Assembly (NCBI GenBank): GCA_965243145.1
Contig: CBDEUB010000002.1
Coordinates: forward strand, 878,354 to 942,353
Source: Bacteriovoracaceae bacterium
GTDB lineage: Bacteria > Bdellovibrionota > Bacteriovoracia > Bacteriovoracales > Bacteriovoracaceae
Direction of reading: 5' to 3'
DNA length: 64,000 nucleotides
Shown: piece after piece, positions 237 through 24,867 of the stretch
Layout: the number at the start of each line of letters is the position of its first letter
Numbering within the stretch: position 1 is the first letter of the stretch
The notes under the pieces: generated by a model
What the model saw: the letters and a program-made list of their open reading frames with translations, nothing else
What the model was told of the DNA's origin: nothing
The model's database searches: none
Program-made: the position numbers and the translations under genes

Positions 237-247
237 AGACGGTTGAA

Positions 248-1237
248 TTATTCGCCGTCTTCATCGTCAATATCATCATCCAAGTTTTGGATTCGATGGG
301 AAAATACTTTGTGGAATGCCTCGGCCCTTTCTTGAAACCAGCCGAACAACTGAGGCCAGTTTTCTTCGTTTGTATAATCCATGGAATTATCATTATATTG
401 AACAATCCTGCTGGATTTTGGTAGCTCTTTCCAATCTAAGCTGGCATTTAATTCCGATTCTATCGAGTCTTTTTGTTTACTGAGAGATAGGAAGGCCTGC
501 TTTTCCTTTGATGATCTTATATCGAGGTAACACCTGGCCTTTTCTCTGGATGAATTTAATGCGAGGATTATACGGAAATTTGATTTGCCTATAGAAATAG
601 GATACCGAGACCGAGGCCAAGGTTGTTGAAGGCGAAGATTGGTAGATTTTTTTTTCATATCATCCCGAAATTCCGTCCAAAATTGCTTTCGCAATAATTT
701 TATTCCTGTCACCTCGCTGGCCTCTTTGGCCGATTTTATACTTCTGGCCCAATCATTTGGCCGTGAAATAAGGTTAAATTTGGGAGCAAGTTGAGAGTCG
801 CCTATCTTCCACAATTCTATTTCCAGGCCAAAAAATGCCACATCATCCGAAGTCTTTTCGTTGATCCAATCCAAAGTTTTTCTGTGTTCATCGTCAATTT
901 TTTCAGCAATCCATACAACTGTTTCCGCATCATAACCGGATGCATATGTCAGAAGCTGGCCCAAATGTTTGTGATCTGTTTTTTCAAGTTGGTTTTCAAT
1001 GACGACACAACGATCCGAATCCGAAGAAGTATCTTTTGCCAATATATCTACCTTGAATGACCCCACCGACTGTTCTGTACCTATAATTTCTAACTCTAAT
1101 CCAATTGCCTCCCCGAGCAGAGAGATATTTTTATCTTCGGCCAACCACGGAGTGAAGTCTTGGGCCTCGTCTTCCCAAAAATCTCTAAGGTCAACACGAG
1201 TTAGCTGTCCCAATTCACGGCCAGTTTTTTTATTCAC
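248..1237 (-). CDS. PD-(D/E)XK (NucS-like) nuclease domain protein with DUF4268-type C-terminal domain
   Basis: 329-aa ORF in AT-rich DNA. The nuclease-like core is FKVDILAKD...CVVIENQLEKTDHKHLGQLLTY (D...E-x-K). The C-terminal half (FWTEFRDDMKK..., RYPISIGKSNFRI) resembles DUF4268 proteins. It is convergent with purD. Confidence 0.6.
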   Translation of the reverse strand: MNKKTGRELGQLTRVDLRDFWEDEAQDFTPWLAEDKNISLLGEAIGLELEIIGTEQSVGSFKVDILAKDTSSDSDRCVVIENQLEKTDHKHLGQLLTYASGYDAETVVWIAEKIDDEHRKTLDWINEKTSDDVAFFGLEIELWKIGDSQLAPKFNLISRPNDWARSIKSAKEASEVTGIKLLRKQFWTEFRDDMKKKSTNLRLQQPWPRSRYPISIGKSNFRIILALNSSREKARCYLDIRSSKEKQAFLSLSKQKDSIESELNASLDWKELPKSSRIVQYNDNSMDYTNEENWPQLFGWFQERAEAFHKVFSHRIQNLDDDIDDEDGE

Positions 1238-1536: not shown

Positions 1537-2634
1537 TTGCCCAACCAAAGAACGGACTTATTTGTGATCGACGATTTTTATAAAAGATTTTCTGAAGAAA
1601 CAGAGGAAAAATTAAAATTATTTTCCTACTACCTAAAAGAATGGTTCCCTGTCTTTCTTAAAACTCCAGTAAGACAAATTAGAATTATTGATCTTTTTTG
1701 TGGCCCAGGAAAAGATGAAACGGGAAAAGAAGGGAGTCCCTTTAAAATAATAGAGGTTATGGACAGTTTTAATAGAGAACACAATCAAGATTTTAAATCT
1801 AAAAAAATTGAAATTTTGTTTAATGATAAAAAATTACGCCACATAGAAAAATTAAAACAAGATATTAACAACAATGAAAATATCTCTAAAGAAGTAAAAA
1901 ATATGATCGTTTATAAAAATCGTGAATTTAAAGAATTATTTTCTGAGATAAAGGAAGATTTAAAGACCTCGGCCAATCTTATATTTTTAGATCAATTTGG
2001 CATAAAAGAAGTTACCAAAGATATTTTTAAAAACCTTTTTAAAATACCCAAAACGGATTTTATATTTTTCATCTCTTCCAGTAGCGTGAAAAGATTTTTT
2101 GATCAAGACGAATTTCAAGAAGTGTGGTGGATGAATAGAGAAGATATTAAAAAATCAGAACTAAAAAATATACACCGAATTATTACAGAAGAATATAAAC
2201 AATTGGCCCCACAGGATGCTTATGTTATTCCCTTTACGCTAAAAAAAGAAACGAATATTTATGGCCTTATTTTTTGCTCTAAACACATTCTGGCCGCTGA
2301 CAAGTTTTTACATATTGCATGGAAAGAAAATTTTTTAAATGGGGAAGCAAATTTTGATATTGACGAGGACGAACAGCAACAATTAAGTTTACTAGAGAAA
2401 AAACTAACAAAGATAGAGGCCTTTGAAAATAGACTTGAAAAAGAAATACTTGCAAGAAAAATTACCAATAATATAAACGCTTACAAATTTACTATTTCAA
2501 ACGGATTTCTTCCTAAACACGCAAAAAAAGTTATTATTAAATTAAAAAACGATGACCATATTAAATTTGACGGCCGTTTAACCTTAACTTACAAATCATG
2601 CATAAAGAACCAAAATGGACAGGTTTTTTATTAA
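1537..2634 (+). CDS. tcmP: three-Cys-motif partner protein (TcmP-like), Rossmann/methyltransferase-like
   Basis: 365-aa ORF with an alternative (TTG) start. The N-terminal region is KLKLFSYYLKEWFPVFL...IRIIDLFCGPGKDE, where DLFCGPG resembles SAM-MTase motif I. It lies directly upstream of a Gp37/Gp68 (DUF5131) gene, which is the defining context of TcmP. Confidence 0.6.
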   Translation: MPNQRTDLFVIDDFYKRFSEETEEKLKLFSYYLKEWFPVFLKTPVRQIRIIDLFCGPGKDETGKEGSPFKIIEVMDSFNREHNQDFKSKKIEILFNDKKLRHIEKLKQDINNNENISKEVKNMIVYKNREFKELFSEIKEDLKTSANLIFLDQFGIKEVTKDIFKNLFKIPKTDFIFFISSSSVKRFFDQDEFQEVWWMNREDIKKSELKNIHRIITEEYKQLAPQDAYVIPFTLKKETNIYGLIFCSKHILAADKFLHIAWKENFLNGEANFDIDEDEQQQLSLLEKKLTKIEAFENRLEKEILARKITNNINAYKFTISNGFLPKHAKKVIIKLKNDDHIKFDGRLTLTYKSCIKNQNGQVFY

Positions 2635-18600: not shown

Positions 18601-19968
18601 TCACTCGCCGTCCTTCTGCAAAGCGAGGTTTTCAAAAGTGGTGTATTCCCCCACCCAGGCCAGTTTGGCCGTGCCGGTTTCGCCGCCGCGATTCTTGCCC
18701 ACAATAATTTCGGCGACATTGGGTTCCTTGGTTTCGGGGTTGTAGTATTCGTCCCGGTAGACAAACATCACTACATCGGCATCCTGTTCGATCGCTCCCG
18801 AATCCCGCAAATCGGAAGTGTTGGGGCGTTTGTTGGGCCGCGCTTCCACCGCGCGGTTGAGTTGGGAGAGGGCCAAAATGGGGCAGTCAAGCTCTTTGGC
18901 CAAGGTTTTCAGGCCGCGGGAGATCTCCGAAATTTGCTGCTCGCGGGAGATTTCTTTGCCACCCTGCCGGTAGTGGCCCATCAACTGAAGATAATCGACC
19001 ACCACCAACCCCAGGCCATATTCGGTTTGCAATTTGCGGCACTGGGATTGAATGTCCAACAGGGTGCTATCGCCTGAGTCGTTGATAAAAATGGGGTATT
19101 CGGACAACTTTTGAATGGCGTGGCCTATGTGGCGCAAATCATTGGGTAGAAAATTTTTGGTGCGGATGCGTTTGGAATCCACTTTGGCCTGCCCGGAGAG
19201 CATCCGCATACTGAGTTCCTGGGCGGTCATCTCCAGAGAAAATATGGCCACAGGTTGATTGTGAAGTTGGCAGGCGTGAGTGGCCATATTGAGGGCCAGG
19301 GAAGTTTTCCCCATCGCCGGCCTGGCCGCCAAAATCACCAACTGGCCGGCCTGCATTCCCAAAAGCAATTTGTCCAGGTCTTGATAGCCGGTGGAAACCC
19401 CTTGGATTTCCCCTGGGGCGCGACTGCTGTCCTCCAACTCCTTCATGTTTTCTTTGAGGCAAAAACTGAGTTTGACCATTCGGCCCGACTTGGCCTGGTT
19501 GACCAGCCCAAAAAAGGCCCCTTCGACTTCTTTGACAAAATCCTCGATGGGGCCTTGAAAATTCATGCCCATTTCGGTCACCCGCATGGAAGTGCGCAAA
19601 ATTTCCCGCATCGAAGAGTGGCCCTTGAGGGTTTCGGCGTAGGCCCGCACATTGGCCGCAGAAATGTGGTCTTCGTACAATTGGCCGAGGGCCGAGTCTC
19701 CCCCCACTTCCTCCAGTTTGCCGTACTGTTTAAGCCGCGATGAAACGGTAACATAGTCGATGGGTTGATTGGCGGTGGCCAAATCGGCAATGGCATCAAA
19801 AATCATGCCGTATTGAGGATGGAAAAAATCTTCACCCCTGATTTTGAGATCGGAAATTTCCCCCAGGCAGTCGCCGTCGAGCATTAGGCAACTCAACAGG
19901 GATTTTTCGGACAGCAGGTCGTGGGGAAATTGGCGGACTTTTTTGGAGGAGGAATCTTGTGTTGTCAC
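18601..19968 (-). CDS. dnaB: replicative DNA helicase
   Basis: Motifs FPHDLLSEKSLLSCLML, ILAARPAMGKTSLALN, VVDYLQLM and SQLNRAVE. Confidence 0.95.
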   Translation of the reverse strand: MTTQDSSSKKVRQFPHDLLSEKSLLSCLMLDGDCLGEISDLKIRGEDFFHPQYGMIFDAIADLATANQPIDYVTVSSRLKQYGKLEEVGGDSALGQLYEDHISAANVRAYAETLKGHSSMREILRTSMRVTEMGMNFQGPIEDFVKEVEGAFFGLVNQAKSGRMVKLSFCLKENMKELEDSSRAPGEIQGVSTGYQDLDKLLLGMQAGQLVILAARPAMGKTSLALNMATHACQLHNQPVAIFSLEMTAQELSMRMLSGQAKVDSKRIRTKNFLPNDLRHIGHAIQKLSEYPIFINDSGDSTLLDIQSQCRKLQTEYGLGLVVVDYLQLMGHYRQGGKEISREQQISEISRGLKTLAKELDCPILALSQLNRAVEARPNKRPNTSDLRDSGAIEQDADVVMFVYRDEYYNPETKEPNVAEIIVGKNRGGETGTAKLAWVGEYTTFENLALQKDGE

Positions 19969-19982
19969 CTCTGGCCCAGGCC

Positions 19983-20624
19983 TTAACTATCTTCTGGTAG
20001 TGAACCGTCGGCCAGCACTTCTTCCCCGCCTTCCGCTACGGCCGCGCTCTCTCCATCCGGTACTTCCCCTGCCTCAACATCCGGGGAAACTTCCGCCGCT
20101 GCGGCCTCTTTTTTCTTTTCCCGTTCTTTTTCCTCGCGGCGCAGTTTGGCCTGCTTTTTCAGTTCTTCGGCCTGTTGGGGGTCTCTTTCAATTTTGACGG
20201 TAAAAAGCGCTTCCACTTCCTTGGCAAACAACTTGACTTTGACCTGGTAAGTGCCCAGGGACTTGATCGGGCGATCGCAGGACAGTAAACGGCGCTCCAC
20301 TTCAATCTCCCTTTTGGCCAATTCTTTGGAGAGTTCGTTGGTGGTGACCGCCCCGAACAGTTTTCCCGAAACCCCCGCTTTGCGGGTGAGTTCAATGGCC
20401 AGGCCGTCCAACTGTTCTTTGACCGCTTCGGCGGCACTCTTCTCAGTGGCAACTTTGCGGGCCAACATTTTCTCGACATGCTTGAGTTGGGCCATATTGC
20501 CCCGATCGGCGATGATGGCCTTCCCCCCGGGAATGAGAAAATTGCGGGCGTGGCCCGGCCTGACATTGACGATTTCGCCCACATTGCCCAGGGTGGGGAC
20601 TTTTTCAGTAAGGATCACTTGCAT
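19983..20624 (-). CDS. rplI: 50S ribosomal protein L9 with ~65-aa charged C-terminal extension
   Basis: MQVILTEKVPTLGNVGEIVNVRPGHARNFLIPGGKA is canonical L9. The length is 213 aa against a usual ~150 aa. Confidence 0.9.
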   Translation of the reverse strand: MQVILTEKVPTLGNVGEIVNVRPGHARNFLIPGGKAIIADRGNMAQLKHVEKMLARKVATEKSAAEAVKEQLDGLAIELTRKAGVSGKLFGAVTTNELSKELAKREIEVERRLLSCDRPIKSLGTYQVKVKLFAKEVEALFTVKIERDPQQAEELKKQAKLRREEKEREKKKEAAAAEVSPDVEAGEVPDGESAAVAEGGEEVLADGSLPEDS

Positions 20625-20667
20625 GGAATGCTCTCCCTTTATTGTGGTTTTTCATTTGAACTTTAAT

Positions 20668-21771
20668 TTATCCTTGATTCGGTTTTTTCTTTAAAAATCC
20701 CCTGAGATTTAACCAGGCATCAAAAACCCCCAGGATGGCGAGCCAAACCTGGGCCAAAGCGACGGTGAGAACCAACAACAAACTTTTGAGGATGCCCACC
20801 AACTTAAAGTGGTTGAGAAAATCCAGAAAAACTCCAAACCCTTGAAAAAAATAAAACACTCCGGTGAGTCCCAACAGGACATGGCCGAGCAGGCGAATCC
20901 CGCCGTCTTCCAGGTGGAAACCCAACAAACTGGTGCCCAGGCCAAAGGCCAGGGGATAGAGCAGATAATCGGAAGTTCTAAAGCGAACCAGATCGAGGGA
21001 AGAATAGGAATAGGCCACCCGGTGGCCCCACAGAAAGAAATTCCTCATCACCAGGAAAAAACACAGCCAAAAGGCGACGAAGGGAACCACGGTAATGTAG
21101 ATCGGCCCCATATTGTAGAGGTAGTCCAAAAATATCTGGGGATCGAATTGCTCCCCCTGGGGCAATTGGGCCAAACTGGCCTCGACCACATTCTGGAGGT
21201 ATCCCTGAACACCCCCCTCCAACAAGAGTTCACACCCCAGAACGGTGGCCCACAAAAAGGCCATCAAGCTGGTGCCGGTGTAGATAATGCAGCGGATGGG
21301 GGGAATATCACAACGGATAAACAGGGAGATGGCGTAGGCGTACACAATGGACAGGGTGTAGGCAATGGCCACCACGCTCTGGGCGGGTACGGCGAACGCC
21401 CCCAGAGTGAGCAAAATCAGCAGGCCAGCGGCCCACTTCAAGGTTTTGATATTGCCGTAGATCAAGAAGGCCAAGCTCAGGGGAACCGGGGCCAAAAAGG
21501 AGAGCAGGCCAAAATACTGGCCAATGCCGAACACCCGATCAAACCCCAAATGGGTCAGGGCCAAAGACATTAAAATGAGCAAAAAGAAGCGCCCGCGATC
21601 CCGCCTGATCCACGCCCCGTCGTCACTTTTATACGCCTTTTGGAAGGCCTCCAGTTTGCGCAATACCTCTTCGCGCCGCAACTTTTCGCGCTTCAGGTGC
21701 TCTAATTCAGCTTCGGCGGAGGCCTTGGAAGGCGCTTTATCGGGGGTTTCGGGAGTCTCTTTTGTGGCCAT
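20668..21771 (-). CDS. polytopic membrane protein, DUF2232 (YybS-like) by context
   Basis: The start was chosen at MATKETPE (21771), just downstream of the rpsF-rpsR stop. There are multiple TM helices. Its position between rps genes and rplI-dnaB mirrors yybS in Firmicutes. Confidence 0.5.
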   Translation of the reverse strand: MATKETPETPDKAPSKASAEAELEHLKREKLRREEVLRKLEAFQKAYKSDDGAWIRRDRGRFFLLILMSLALTHLGFDRVFGIGQYFGLLSFLAPVPLSLAFLIYGNIKTLKWAAGLLILLTLGAFAVPAQSVVAIAYTLSIVYAYAISLFIRCDIPPIRCIIYTGTSLMAFLWATVLGCELLLEGGVQGYLQNVVEASLAQLPQGEQFDPQIFLDYLYNMGPIYITVVPFVAFWLCFFLVMRNFFLWGHRVAYSYSSLDLVRFRTSDYLLYPLAFGLGTSLLGFHLEDGGIRLLGHVLLGLTGVFYFFQGFGVFLDFLNHFKLVGILKSLLLVLTVALAQVWLAILGVFDAWLNLRGFLKKKPNQG

Positions 21772-21779
21772 AGGATAAA

Positions 21780-22403
21780 CTACCTCTTGTAGGCCACTCG
21801 GTTGCTCATGTGCCCGACAATGCCTATTTGGCGGGCGCGCTTGATGGCGGTGGTGGCGAAGCGCTGGTGTTTGGTGGAAACCCCTGTCACCCGCGCCGGA
21901 GAAATTTTGCCAAACTCGTTGATGAGCCAGGTAAAAGTGTCGGGGTCTTTCCAGTCGGCGCAAATATTGTTGGCGCGAAAATAACAGGTCTTGCGCCGGG
22001 CGAATTTGCGCGGGTTGGGGCCTTCCCCGTCCTCTCCGTCAATTTTGGTGACGCTTCCGTGGTATTGCTTGGAAAAGGGCGTTTTGTAGGCCTTCACCAG
22101 GGCCTCGCGCTGGGCCTTGTCCCCGCGGACAACCAACAGGTGGCGCAGGTGATCTTCGTTGATTTTGAAACGGCGGGCGAGTTCCCTGTTGCAGCGGTTG
22201 TTGGCGCAAAAGAGAAAGTACAAAAAGTGCCCGTTGGCCACTCCCCTGCGGGTGGGGTGGGCCAAAGTTAAACGCCCCCAATCGTCTTCGATAAAGATTT
22301 CACCCTCAAAAGATTTGACGGTGTCGGTGACGATTTGCTTGATCGCCGCCAAGCGGGCCTCGTCCAAGTCCGCTTTGGCCACCAGAGACAATTCATAAAT
22401 CAT
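21780..22403 (-). CDS. rpsF-rpsR: fused 30S ribosomal proteins S6 (N-terminal) and S18 (C-terminal)
   Basis: One uninterrupted 207-aa ORF. The S6-like part is MIYELSLVAKADLDE...EDDWGRLTLAHP...HFLYFLF...HLRHLLV. The S18-like part is RRKTCYF...DWKDPDTFTWLINEFGKISPARVTGVSTKHQRFATTAIKRARQIGIV. Confidence 0.8.
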   Translation of the reverse strand: MIYELSLVAKADLDEARLAAIKQIVTDTVKSFEGEIFIEDDWGRLTLAHPTRRGVANGHFLYFLFCANNRCNRELARRFKINEDHLRHLLVVRGDKAQREALVKAYKTPFSKQYHGSVTKIDGEDGEGPNPRKFARRKTCYFRANNICADWKDPDTFTWLINEFGKISPARVTGVSTKHQRFATTAIKRARQIGIVGHMSNRVAYKR

Positions 22404-22434
22404 AAGTCAACCCCTCGGTCTTTTGGCCCTCTGC

Positions 22435-23700
22435 TTACGCAGGGGCGAGATTGCACAAAGAGGACAAGCTAGCACTTTTGGCGTGGGATGCAAAGCCGGG
22501 CGGGGGGCAAATTCTCACCAAATTGAGGGGTTTGGCCCCGTTCCTGTAGGGGATTTTGGCCAAAGTGCCCAACTTGGCCACTTTAAGGGGCCGGTTTTGC
22601 AAATCGGTCATGCCTTCCAGGGGAAATCGCTGCATGTCGCCATAAAAAGGGAGCAACTCGACCCAATCTCCCTCGGCAAGGTTGGAGCGCACTTCGAGGG
22701 TGAGGTGTCTCCCCGGCAAGGCCTCCAAGGCCACTGCTCCCAGGCGGTATTCTTTATGCTTTGAGTCGTCAACCGCTATCGAGCTTTCCCCCGCCGGCGC
22801 GGCCAAACTTCCGCTGCAATAACCGCGGTGGGGGAGTTTTTCCAGTTCCGCCGCCAAAGACTCCCAGGGGCCAGGGGCAAGGATGCCATCGCGGTAGAGG
22901 TCGAGGGCCTGGCGGTACACTTTGGTGACAGTCCCCAAATAGTGCTGGGACTTCATCCGCCCCTCCACTTTTAAACTGCCGATCCCCGCCCGGATAAAAT
23001 CCCCCAGCAATTCCAGTCCGCGCAAATCCTTGGAAGACATAAAAGTCGTTCCCTCGGCCACTAGCTGGCCTGGGAATTGGGGCGACTTGAGGTTGTACTC
23101 AAAGCGGCAACTGTGGGCGCAACCCCCGCGGTTGGAATCCCGCCCCTGGGTATAATTGGAGATGACACAGTGGCCAGAATAGGCCGTGCACAAGCTCCCG
23201 TGGACAAACATCTCCAGCTCAATACCGCAACTCCGGCGCAGGTGGGCCGCCTCGGCCAGGGACACTTCCCGCCCCAGGATGATGCGCTCCACTCCCGCCC
23301 CCTTCCACCAGGAGGCCGCCAACGAGTTGAGGCAACTGGCCTGGGTGGAGAGGTGAATGGGCAACGAACTGTGGGCCTTGGCGGTCTCGATCACCCCCAA
23401 GTCGCTGGCGATGACGGCATCGGTGCCGATACTCTCCAAAAAGCGCAAAAAGTCGGGCAATTCCCCCAACTCGTCGTCGTGTAAAAAGCTGTTGAGGACG
23501 ACATACACTTTGGCGTGGTGGGCGTGGGCAAACGACACTCCTTGACGCAATTCATACTCAGAAAAATTGTCCGAGGCCGAGCGCAGGCCAAATTTTTGCC
23601 CCCCCAAATAGACCGCATCGGCCCCGTACAAAACCGCCACCTTCAACTTTTCCAGGGAGCCGGCGGGAATCAATAACTCGGGAATGGGTGCGCTCATCAA
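22435..23700 (-). CDS. peptidase U32 family protein
   Basis: Motifs ELLIPAGSLEKLKVAVLYGADAVYLGG, LEMFVHGSLCTAYSGHCVISNY and RDSNRGGCAHSCR. Confidence 0.85.
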   Translation of the reverse strand: MMSAPIPELLIPAGSLEKLKVAVLYGADAVYLGGQKFGLRSASDNFSEYELRQGVSFAHAHHAKVYVVLNSFLHDDELGELPDFLRFLESIGTDAVIASDLGVIETAKAHSSLPIHLSTQASCLNSLAASWWKGAGVERIILGREVSLAEAAHLRRSCGIELEMFVHGSLCTAYSGHCVISNYTQGRDSNRGGCAHSCRFEYNLKSPQFPGQLVAEGTTFMSSKDLRGLELLGDFIRAGIGSLKVEGRMKSQHYLGTVTKVYRQALDLYRDGILAPGPWESLAAELEKLPHRGYCSGSLAAPAGESSIAVDDSKHKEYRLGAVALEALPGRHLTLEVRSNLAEGDWVELLPFYGDMQRFPLEGMTDLQNRPLKVAKLGTLAKIPYRNGAKPLNLVRICPPPGFASHAKSASLSSLCNLAPA

Positions 23701-23721
23701 AATGCTCTATAATAAAGGGGA

Positions 23722-24867
23722 ATGAAAATATTAAGGCCCATCGCTTTGCTCTCGTTTTTGGCCCTATTGATGGGGGGATTGTATTGGCCCTTATCCCGCC
23801 TGTCCAACCCCGTGCAAACCGGCACCCCCCTGCCCTATGTTTTGCGCGCCAACTACGCCGGCGAGGCCCGCCGGGCGGAAAAGAGCAATATTTTGCTGGT
23901 AGGGGATCGCCTGGGGGCCAAACTGGCCCCGTTTCTGGACGCCCTGGTGCGGGAGACGCAAGGCCGGTTGGCCGAACCCCTCACCGTCTACAACTGGGCC
24001 AGGGAGGGGGAGGGCCTGCACCGCACACTCGCCAAAATCAAATCCCTACGGCGCATGCCCGAGGTGATCATCTACCACGGCGGCAGTCAAGAATTTTTTG
24101 AACAGCGCCTGATGCCACAATTCTACCCTGCGATTCTCTCCAACTACCAGGCCCATCAAAACCCGAAGAATCGCGAACTCATAAAATCTTGGGGCCAATT
24201 ATCAAAATTTATTTATACTCCCCACCCTCGCGTCCAATTGAAGCAGACCTATTCCCCACTGAGCAAGGCCCGCCCCCACCAACAAAACCAGCGCATGATG
24301 GAACTGACCTACCTCACCTTTAGCGCCGAATACCGCGAATTTGTCGAGGGCCTCAAACGGCGACGGGCCAAGGTGATCGTCATTCCCCCCGCCCACAACC
24401 TGGATGTCGCTCCCCGGGCCACATGCCAAAATTCCTCCACCGGGGAACAGAGGGAGCGCATTGAGGCCATAGTCGAACACATCCGCGGCGGGCGCGCCCC
24501 CGCCGCCATCCCCCAACTGCAAGACATTCTGTCCCGTTCCCATGGCAATGCCCTGGCCTATTACTGGCTCGGGCAGGCACTCAAACATACAGGCCACTTC
24601 AAAGATGCCAAATCGCTGCTCTACCGGGCGATGCTGTTCGACTGTTGGCCATTCCGGGGCAATATGATTTTTAACCGCATCCAAACCCAACTGGCCGAGC
24701 AAGGCCAATTCCAGGTGATCGATTTCAACCGCCTGGTCAACCGGAAATTCGGCCAGCGGGATTCTTCCCAAACGCTCTTTGCCGACGACATTTTTCCGCG
24801 GGACATTTTTTACCGCCAACTGGTTCAAGGCCTTATCAAGAAAGTGGAGAATATCCTCAAAATTTAA
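23722..24867 (+). CDS. hypothetical exported protein
   Basis: Signal/TM sequence MKILRPIALLSFLALLMGGL. The C-terminal segment is TPR-like (AYYWLGQALKHTGHFKDAKSLLYRA). No confident family. Confidence 0.5.
   Translation: MKILRPIALLSFLALLMGGLYWPLSRLSNPVQTGTPLPYVLRANYAGEARRAEKSNILLVGDRLGAKLAPFLDALVRETQGRLAEPLTVYNWAREGEGLHRTLAKIKSLRRMPEVIIYHGGSQEFFEQRLMPQFYPAILSNYQAHQNPKNRELIKSWGQLSKFIYTPHPRVQLKQTYSPLSKARPHQQNQRMMELTYLTFSAEYREFVEGLKRRRAKVIVIPPAHNLDVAPRATCQNSSTGEQRERIEAIVEHIRGGRAPAAIPQLQDILSRSHGNALAYYWLGQALKHTGHFKDAKSLLYRAMLFDCWPFRGNMIFNRIQTQLAEQGQFQVIDFNRLVNRKFGQRDSSQTLFADDIFPRDIFYRQLVQGLIKKVENILKI

Follow-up and report, generated by a model that had tools for sequence, protein, structure and literature searches.

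Ribosomal proteins S6 and S18 bind the S15-primed central domain of 16S rRNA only as a pre-formed heterodimer. In a 64,000-nt stretch of DNA from a Bacteriovoracaceae bacterium (GenBank assembly GCA_965243145.1, contig CBDEUB010000002.1; hereafter the window), one reading frame appears to encode both partners, which raises the question of whether this genome truly makes S6 and S18 as a single polypeptide, how widely such a gene is shared, and what a covalent link between two proteins that pair in any case might contribute to the ribosome.

The gene lies on the minus strand at positions 21780–22403, from an ATG start to a TAG stop at 21780–21782, and encodes a protein of 207 aa (23.8 kDa, pI 9.9). 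The initial annotation had reported a single uninterrupted ORF, with the strand unstated, and the ORF listing of the window bears this out: the 207-aa frame has no interruption, and its translation is the one quoted there. The N-terminal half matches the Pfam family Ribosomal_S6 (PF01250) across residues 3–91 (56.5 bits, cut-off 27), and bS6 chains match residues 1–103 in PDB sequence searches, while the NCBIfam S6 equivalog (TIGR00166) scores 38.9 bits, slightly under its stricter cut-off of 42.9. The C-terminal half, which had been called S18-like, is given as S18 by Pfam (Ribosomal_S18, PF01084; residues 146–195, 59.2 bits, cut-off 21), by NCBIfam (equivalog TIGR00165; residues 134–198, 60.3 bits, over the 38.75 cut-off), and by PDB sequence searches, in which residues 128–201 match bS18 chains with a best E value of 1e-14. 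Among the PDB matches from sequence search and Foldseek, no chain spans both the S6 and S18 halves, and none comes from a ribosome structure of the Bacteriovoracia clade.

The genome assembly measures 2.85 Mb in 2 contigs and is 96% complete; its second contig is 4207 bp long with 41.6% G+C, compared with 47.7% for the 2.84-Mb chromosome. PF01250 and PF01084 each have one match genome-wide, in both cases the fused ORF, which is therefore the sole S6 and the sole S18. We conclude that rpsF and rpsR are truly fused in frame and that the ORF is the genome's only source of both proteins.

An AlphaFold2 model of the fused chain, built on 106 homologues, has a mean pLDDT of 80 and a pTM of 0.76. The bS6 core (residues 1–94; positions 22122–22403, minus strand) is modelled at a pLDDT of ~90 with strands at residues 2–10, 35–46, 57–66, and 85–94 and helices at 15–31 and 69–81, an order of elements that is the ferredoxin-like beta-alpha-beta-beta-alpha-beta fold of S6. 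A confident helix at residues 96–105 and an extended segment at pLDDT ~80 follow; pLDDT falls below 50 at residues 122–129 only, and the S18 half is predicted with moderate confidence (pLDDT 57–81). When the model was compared with the PDB using Foldseek, each of the best 50 matches listed was a bS6 or bS6m chain. Superposition of the N-terminal half on solved bS6 chains gives a target-normalised TM-score (TMt) of up to 0.93 and an rmsd of 1.2 Å over 93 columns, and the S6 fold aligns to chain 1g1x_A with a TMt of 0.83; the corresponding entry, 1G1X, is the Thermus thermophilus S15-S6-S18-rRNA complex. The longest alignments, of 103–104 columns, are to the Bacteroidia bS6 chains 7jil_k and 9i5v_b. 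Together with the Pfam match, this superposition upholds the S6-like reading of the N-terminal half.

The two halves had been described as joined by a linker of ~35 aa. A region joining them is indeed present, but it is not a neutral tether, since about 25 of its residues are the conserved C-terminal tail of S6. Three parts can be distinguished: the S6 tail, comprising the helix and the motif YKTPFSKxYxGS (residues 95–120; positions 22044–22121, minus strand); an acidic spacer that is variable, predicted to be disordered, and the true junction (residues 121–130, IDGEDGEGPN; positions 22014–22043, minus strand); and the basic N-terminal arm of S18, RKFARRKTCYF, with which the bS18 part begins before passing into the S18 domain (residues 131–207 plus the stop; positions 21780–22013, minus strand). 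In the window protein, junction residues 121–132 read IDGEDGEGPNPR.

Conservation along this region was read from alignments of 21 and 106 fused proteins. In the motif VKAYKTPFSKxYxGS, residues K104, Y106, K107, P109, S111, K112, G116, and S117 are 88–100% conserved, and across the 106 fused homologues P109, S111, and G116 are invariant and K104, K107, K112, and S117 reach at least 93%. The other large fused subclade has a tail that reads YKNPNH... instead. In relatives that keep two genes, S6 stops just past a weaker version of the motif (for example ...VKAYKTPGYNNN, ...YKSPFSNN, and ...YKCPLQKNS, each directly followed by the stop codon), and residues 95–120 are therefore assigned to the C-terminal tail of S6 itself.

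The variable spacer stretch spans 14–26 residues across the 106 homologues, with 37% D+E, and despite this variability it is under purifying selection within the window's genus (pN/pS 0.19–0.27). Among three species of that genus, the junction has zero indels and a pN/pS of 0.17–0.31, against 0.22–0.28 for the S6 core, so the junction is both translated in the S6-S18 frame and constrained. Between the tail and the S18 domain, the window sequence contains no in-frame ATG, GTG, or TTG, and S18 is thus not made separately by ordinary initiation.

The fused gene heads a conserved block with the order rpsF-rpsR-(DUF2232)-rplI-dnaB. Starting 8 nt past its stop is a gene for a 367-aa membrane protein (20668–21771, minus strand), followed by rplI, which encodes bL9 and was assigned by family match (19983–20624, minus strand), and, at the end of the block, by a dnaB-like replicative helicase gene (18601–19968, minus strand), which was recognised by eye and whose positional counterpart in Halobacteriovorax sp. 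GB3 carries the DnaB Pfam domains. The window's membrane protein has no Pfam or NCBIfam match, and the DUF2232 label is taken solely from its positional counterpart in Halobacteriovorax sp. GB3, a DUF2232 (YybS-like) protein (PF09991); a homologue occupies the same position in nearly all relatives. The observation that no ssb gene is present in the cluster stands, the genome's one SSB match lying ~420 kb away. Beyond the block, a 1141-aa ORF on the plus strand (15057–18482) carries a C-terminal region of ~250 residues that resembles formylglycine-generating enzyme/SUMF1 by eye (…RGGGW…).

Upstream, a U32-family (TrhP/UbiU-like) gene (22435–23700, minus strand) has its stop 31 nt before the fused ATG. 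The best NCBIfam likeness of its product is to TrhP, a tRNA U34 hydroxylase, and to UbiU, both far under cut-off, and in Halobacteriovorax sp. GB3 an RNase E/G gene stands in its place. The two genes may be co-transcribed; the sole sigma-70-like match of the region, at 23806–23778, is upstream of the U32-family gene. A Shine-Dalgarno-like (SD-like) GAGGGG was read from the sequence 7 nt upstream of the fused ATG (22411–22416, minus strand), and SD-like cores are enriched genome-wide at −13 to −9 upstream of long ORFs (28.5% versus a 9% background). An Rfam search of the sequence upstream of the fused gene, at E values up to 1, gave no family match and no rpsF leader. Because there is no Rfam match and the intergenic gap is only 31 nt, autoregulation through an S6:S18-responsive leader is apparently absent. 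The only Rfam match within 19500–24000, a viral hairpin at E 0.92, is at chance level and was discarded.

The possibility that the fusion is peculiar to the window genome was not borne out: most of the class Bacteriovoracia shares it. One full-length, stop-free frame is found in 22 of the 24 sampled genomes of the window's GTDB family, and across the class 228 of the 238 species genomes searched gave a match. About 214 of these 228 have a single uninterrupted frame, taken as such from E values of at most 1e-43 for genomes outside the match table, where lone halves in split genomes give 1e-15 to 1e-29; of the 14 set aside, eight were verified as split, the gene is broken at contig ends in two, one has an internal TAA, and three gave weak partial matches. 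A large protein database holds 247 homologues, and all 120 of the 120 matches listed carry both Pfam domains. A tblastn search of GTDB species genomes recovered 408 relatives, named Bacteriovoracaceae, Halobacteriovoraceae, Bacteriovorax, or Halobacteriovorax. The search of relatives that the initial annotation had proposed thus finds the same fusion in over 200 species genomes that were assembled independently, cultured isolates included. The isolates Bacteriovorax sp. DB6_IX, Bacteriovorax sp. BSW11_IV, and Halobacteriovorax sp. CON-3 are among the fused relatives, and for Halobacteriovorax sp. GB3 the GenBank assembly and an independent run encode one and the same fused protein of 207 aa, with the same DUF2232-L9-DnaB neighbours. 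The fusion is therefore an ancient, clade-wide lineage trait of most Bacteriovorax-type predatory bacteria.

Several genomes depart from the common pattern in other ways. The only genome of the order's second family (G025; 0.9 Mb in 4 contigs, 96% complete) encodes a fused S6-S18 at 37% identity (L018, G025:C2:47500-52500, locus positions 2083–2706) with rplI directly downstream and no DUF2232 gene, and looks like a reduced-genome lineage inside Bacteriovoracales. In G153 (L032, G153:C61), a lone in-frame TAA falls within the acidic spacer (locus positions ~1732–1734, minus strand), with no ATG, GTG, or TTG between it and the S18 domain; the TAA may reflect an error in the MAG consensus, a nonsense mutation that arose recently, or a stop that is read through. 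G155 encodes a normal fused gene, for which reason it was rejected as a split genome, and has, on a different contig, a further S6 ORF (L040, G155:C102:1-2244, locus positions 241–807, minus strand; 189 aa) that looks canonical, bears a long basic tail, and may be bin contamination or a paralogue. G225 and G238 were also rejected as split genomes, their genes being broken at contig ends.

Two genes are kept in eight genomes from five genera of the class (G004, G020/G160, G138/G139, G140/G141, and G147); an alternative reading of G140 and G141 as having one long open frame was rejected, each having two ORFs. The S18 proteins of the split genera bear an unusually long, acidic, low-complexity N-terminal extension of 40–60 aa, such as MSEIKKYPKKKEETEYKKPMDRNDRNDRNDGDFDADSGDGEFGGYDVDKDRKMF... 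(L015, L016, L022–L026, L035). In other families of the phylum, used as an outgroup, rpsF and rpsR are adjacent with no ssb between them, and in two of these genomes (G030 and G039) they share one frame with a single stop codon between, so that the loss of one stop would be enough to create a fusion. Most likely, the fusion arose within Bacteriovoracia when neighbouring rpsF and rpsR lost the stop and the short spacer that separated them.

In order to place this event, a tree was built from S6, S18, DUF2232, and L9 (47 rows), rooted on four outgroup genomes. G004 and the G138–G141 group branch at its base, and the other 38 rows form a clade (support 89/95) that includes G020/G160 and G147, whose position inside it the tree does not settle. 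G153 is sister to the fused G006 (support 100/100), and G025, also fused, sits on a very long branch. A single clade of all 34 sampled fused rows, G153 set aside, is not rejected (AU p 0.38). On a tree whose base is poorly resolved, the simplest reading is one early origin in the class that followed the divergence of the basal genera, and the fusion has most likely been kept since.

When 1.84 billion cluster representatives were searched exhaustively with HMMER for S6-S18 chains, further full-length examples emerged at 28–34% identity, and no other lineage showed the breadth of fusion seen in Bacteriovoracia. P0138 groups with G025 and has the clade's S18 signatures, whereas P0164, P0165, P0169, P0170, P0175, P0176, P0185, P0235, and P0248 have canonical S6 and S18 signatures with unrelated linkers. 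Most fusions from other lineages are single sightings; those seen independently more than once are the P0169 type, present in three assemblies (P0169, P0274, and P0165), and P0170, which has a second member, P0273. Like the window protein, these sporadic fusions have S6 before S18 and a length of ~190–230 aa; unlike it, they carry YE[IT]V... and IDYKD signatures, other linkers, and no YKTPFSK, and are 28–31% identical to it. Judged by their sequences, they are probably independent and rare events, some perhaps artefacts. Two further candidates, P0184 and P0203, were not accepted as true fusions, as their out-of-frame-looking, Arg/Gly-rich junctions look like frameshift artefacts, and P0160 (1125 aa, with 20 matches to residues 137–162) is a tandem-repeat ORF matched by chance.

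The S6-S18 fusion appears unstudied. Searches of a limited full-text literature collection, and term searches of Yutin et al. 2012 and Babina et al. 2015, found no description of one, and database names cover it partially, as "30S ribosomal protein S18" or "ribosomal protein S18/ribosomal protein S6".

Taken together, the fused protein is probably a tethered, obligatorily 1:1 S6:S18 module for assembly of the 30S platform, made as one chain from a true fusion. Its partners would be produced strictly 1:1 from one initiation event, and S6-S18 pairing would become intramolecular before docking on the platform. The flexible acidic spacer, at 14–26 residues, would supply slack and reach, and the conserved tail would keep whatever contact or role it has at the end of a free S6. 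We infer that the chain remains uncut in the ribosome and brings a benefit in stoichiometry and assembly; any such advantage would be modest, because two genes serve eight genomes from five genera of the class well.

The main rival is that the product is a polyprotein precursor cut in the acidic spacer, so that mature ribosomes contain separate S6 and S18 and the fusion serves only co-expression. A spacer that is predicted to be disordered and varies in length and sequence would be accessible to a protease, and it is exactly in this region that the split relatives end S6 and begin S18. The spacers of 106 homologues nevertheless have no conserved cleavage motif visible, and across relatives the locus has no protease of its own, the upstream gene being U32/TrhP-like in the window and RNase E/G in Halobacteriovorax sp. 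GB3. Moreover, ribosomal proteins of bacteria are not known to be produced as polyproteins. We therefore regard cleavage of a precursor as unlikely.

It is quite unlikely, too, that the fusion is kept because the tail and linker have a 30S platform function of their own, through contact with the 3′ tail of 16S rRNA or with a clade-specific factor. By analogy with Bacteroidia, YKTPFSKxYxGS and the acidic spacer might form a clade-specific element in the bS6/bS18 groove, beside the 16S 3′ tail, that tunes SD/anti-SD use or binds a lineage-specific factor and is fixed in place by the covalent link. The invariant residues of the linker are consistent with such a role, as is the fact that the longest structural alignments are with Bacteroidia bS6, whose C-terminal helix touches the 16S end (PMC7797042). 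However, the weaker tail motif on the unfused S6 of split relatives indicates that the motif predates the fusion, the other large fused subclade has a different motif, and the genome-wide SD enrichment argues that the anti-SD is not generally occluded.

A dual product, in which the full chain is accompanied by a separate S18 initiated internally in the linker, is very improbable: the spacer codons do include a purine-rich stretch (GGAGAGGACGGGGAAGG), but no in-frame ATG, GTG, or TTG follows it before the RRKTCYF arm. For practical purposes, it can be ruled out that faulty assembly or sequencing produced the single frame by hiding a stop or indel between two ordinary genes, as unrelated metagenome entries such as P0184 and P0203 seem to illustrate. 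The frame recurs in over 200 independent species genomes and also in isolates, one of them in two data sets; the junction is under purifying selection, with no indels among three congeners; and there is no start codon for separate translation of S18.

As an experiment on ribosome assembly that nature has already carried out, the S6-S18 fusion is moderately interesting. Its two partners are the standard textbook example of proteins that have to pair before binding rRNA, and a natural single-chain form tests what the pairing is for. Since the fusion is found in a class with cultured members, comparisons become possible of assembly kinetics, of how stoichiometry is controlled, and of lost leader autoregulation. 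In addition, annotation pipelines name such genes after one partner only, S18 or S6, and marker-gene sets that expect two proteins may therefore miscount them in Bacteriovoracia.

One of the closest known S6/S18 systems is that of Bacteroidia. In the Flavobacterium johnsoniae 70S ribosome (PDB 7JIL), the C-terminal helix of bS6 contacts the last 16S rRNA nucleotides in the bS6/bS18 groove, and Bacteroidia make bS6 and bS18 as two chains, which, with bS21, sequester the anti-SD (PMC7797042). As in Bacteroidia bS6, a helix directly follows the S6 core of the fused chain (predicted here at residues 96–105), a likeness seen at the level of structural alignment. In contrast to Bacteroidia, the genome with the fused chain has ordinary SD enrichment, and a general occlusion of the anti-SD of the Bacteroidia kind was rejected on this ground.

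The rpsF leader is an autoregulatory mRNA structure that responds to the S6:S18 complex (Babina et al. 2015, PMC4647458), and it is this regulatory complex that the fused protein would mimic. Unlike an operon with an rpsF leader, the fused gene has no Rfam leader match upstream and is separated from the U32-family gene by the 31-nt gap.

In the canonical arrangement, the two proteins have separate genes, as in rpsF-priB-rpsR-rplI of Escherichia coli and rpsF-ssbA-rpsR of Bacillus subtilis. The fused gene shares with the canonical bS6:bS18 pair both domains, the order of S6 before S18, and the rplI and dnaB neighbourhood, but it makes one polypeptide from one start codon, neither ssb nor priB separates its halves, and S18 has no start of its own. 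In E. coli, the C-terminus of S6 carries a glutamate tail added by RimK and the N-terminus of S18 is acetylated by RimI; the fused chain is without a free S6 C-terminus and a free S18 N-terminus, and the fusion thus removes the two ends that are modified in model bacteria.
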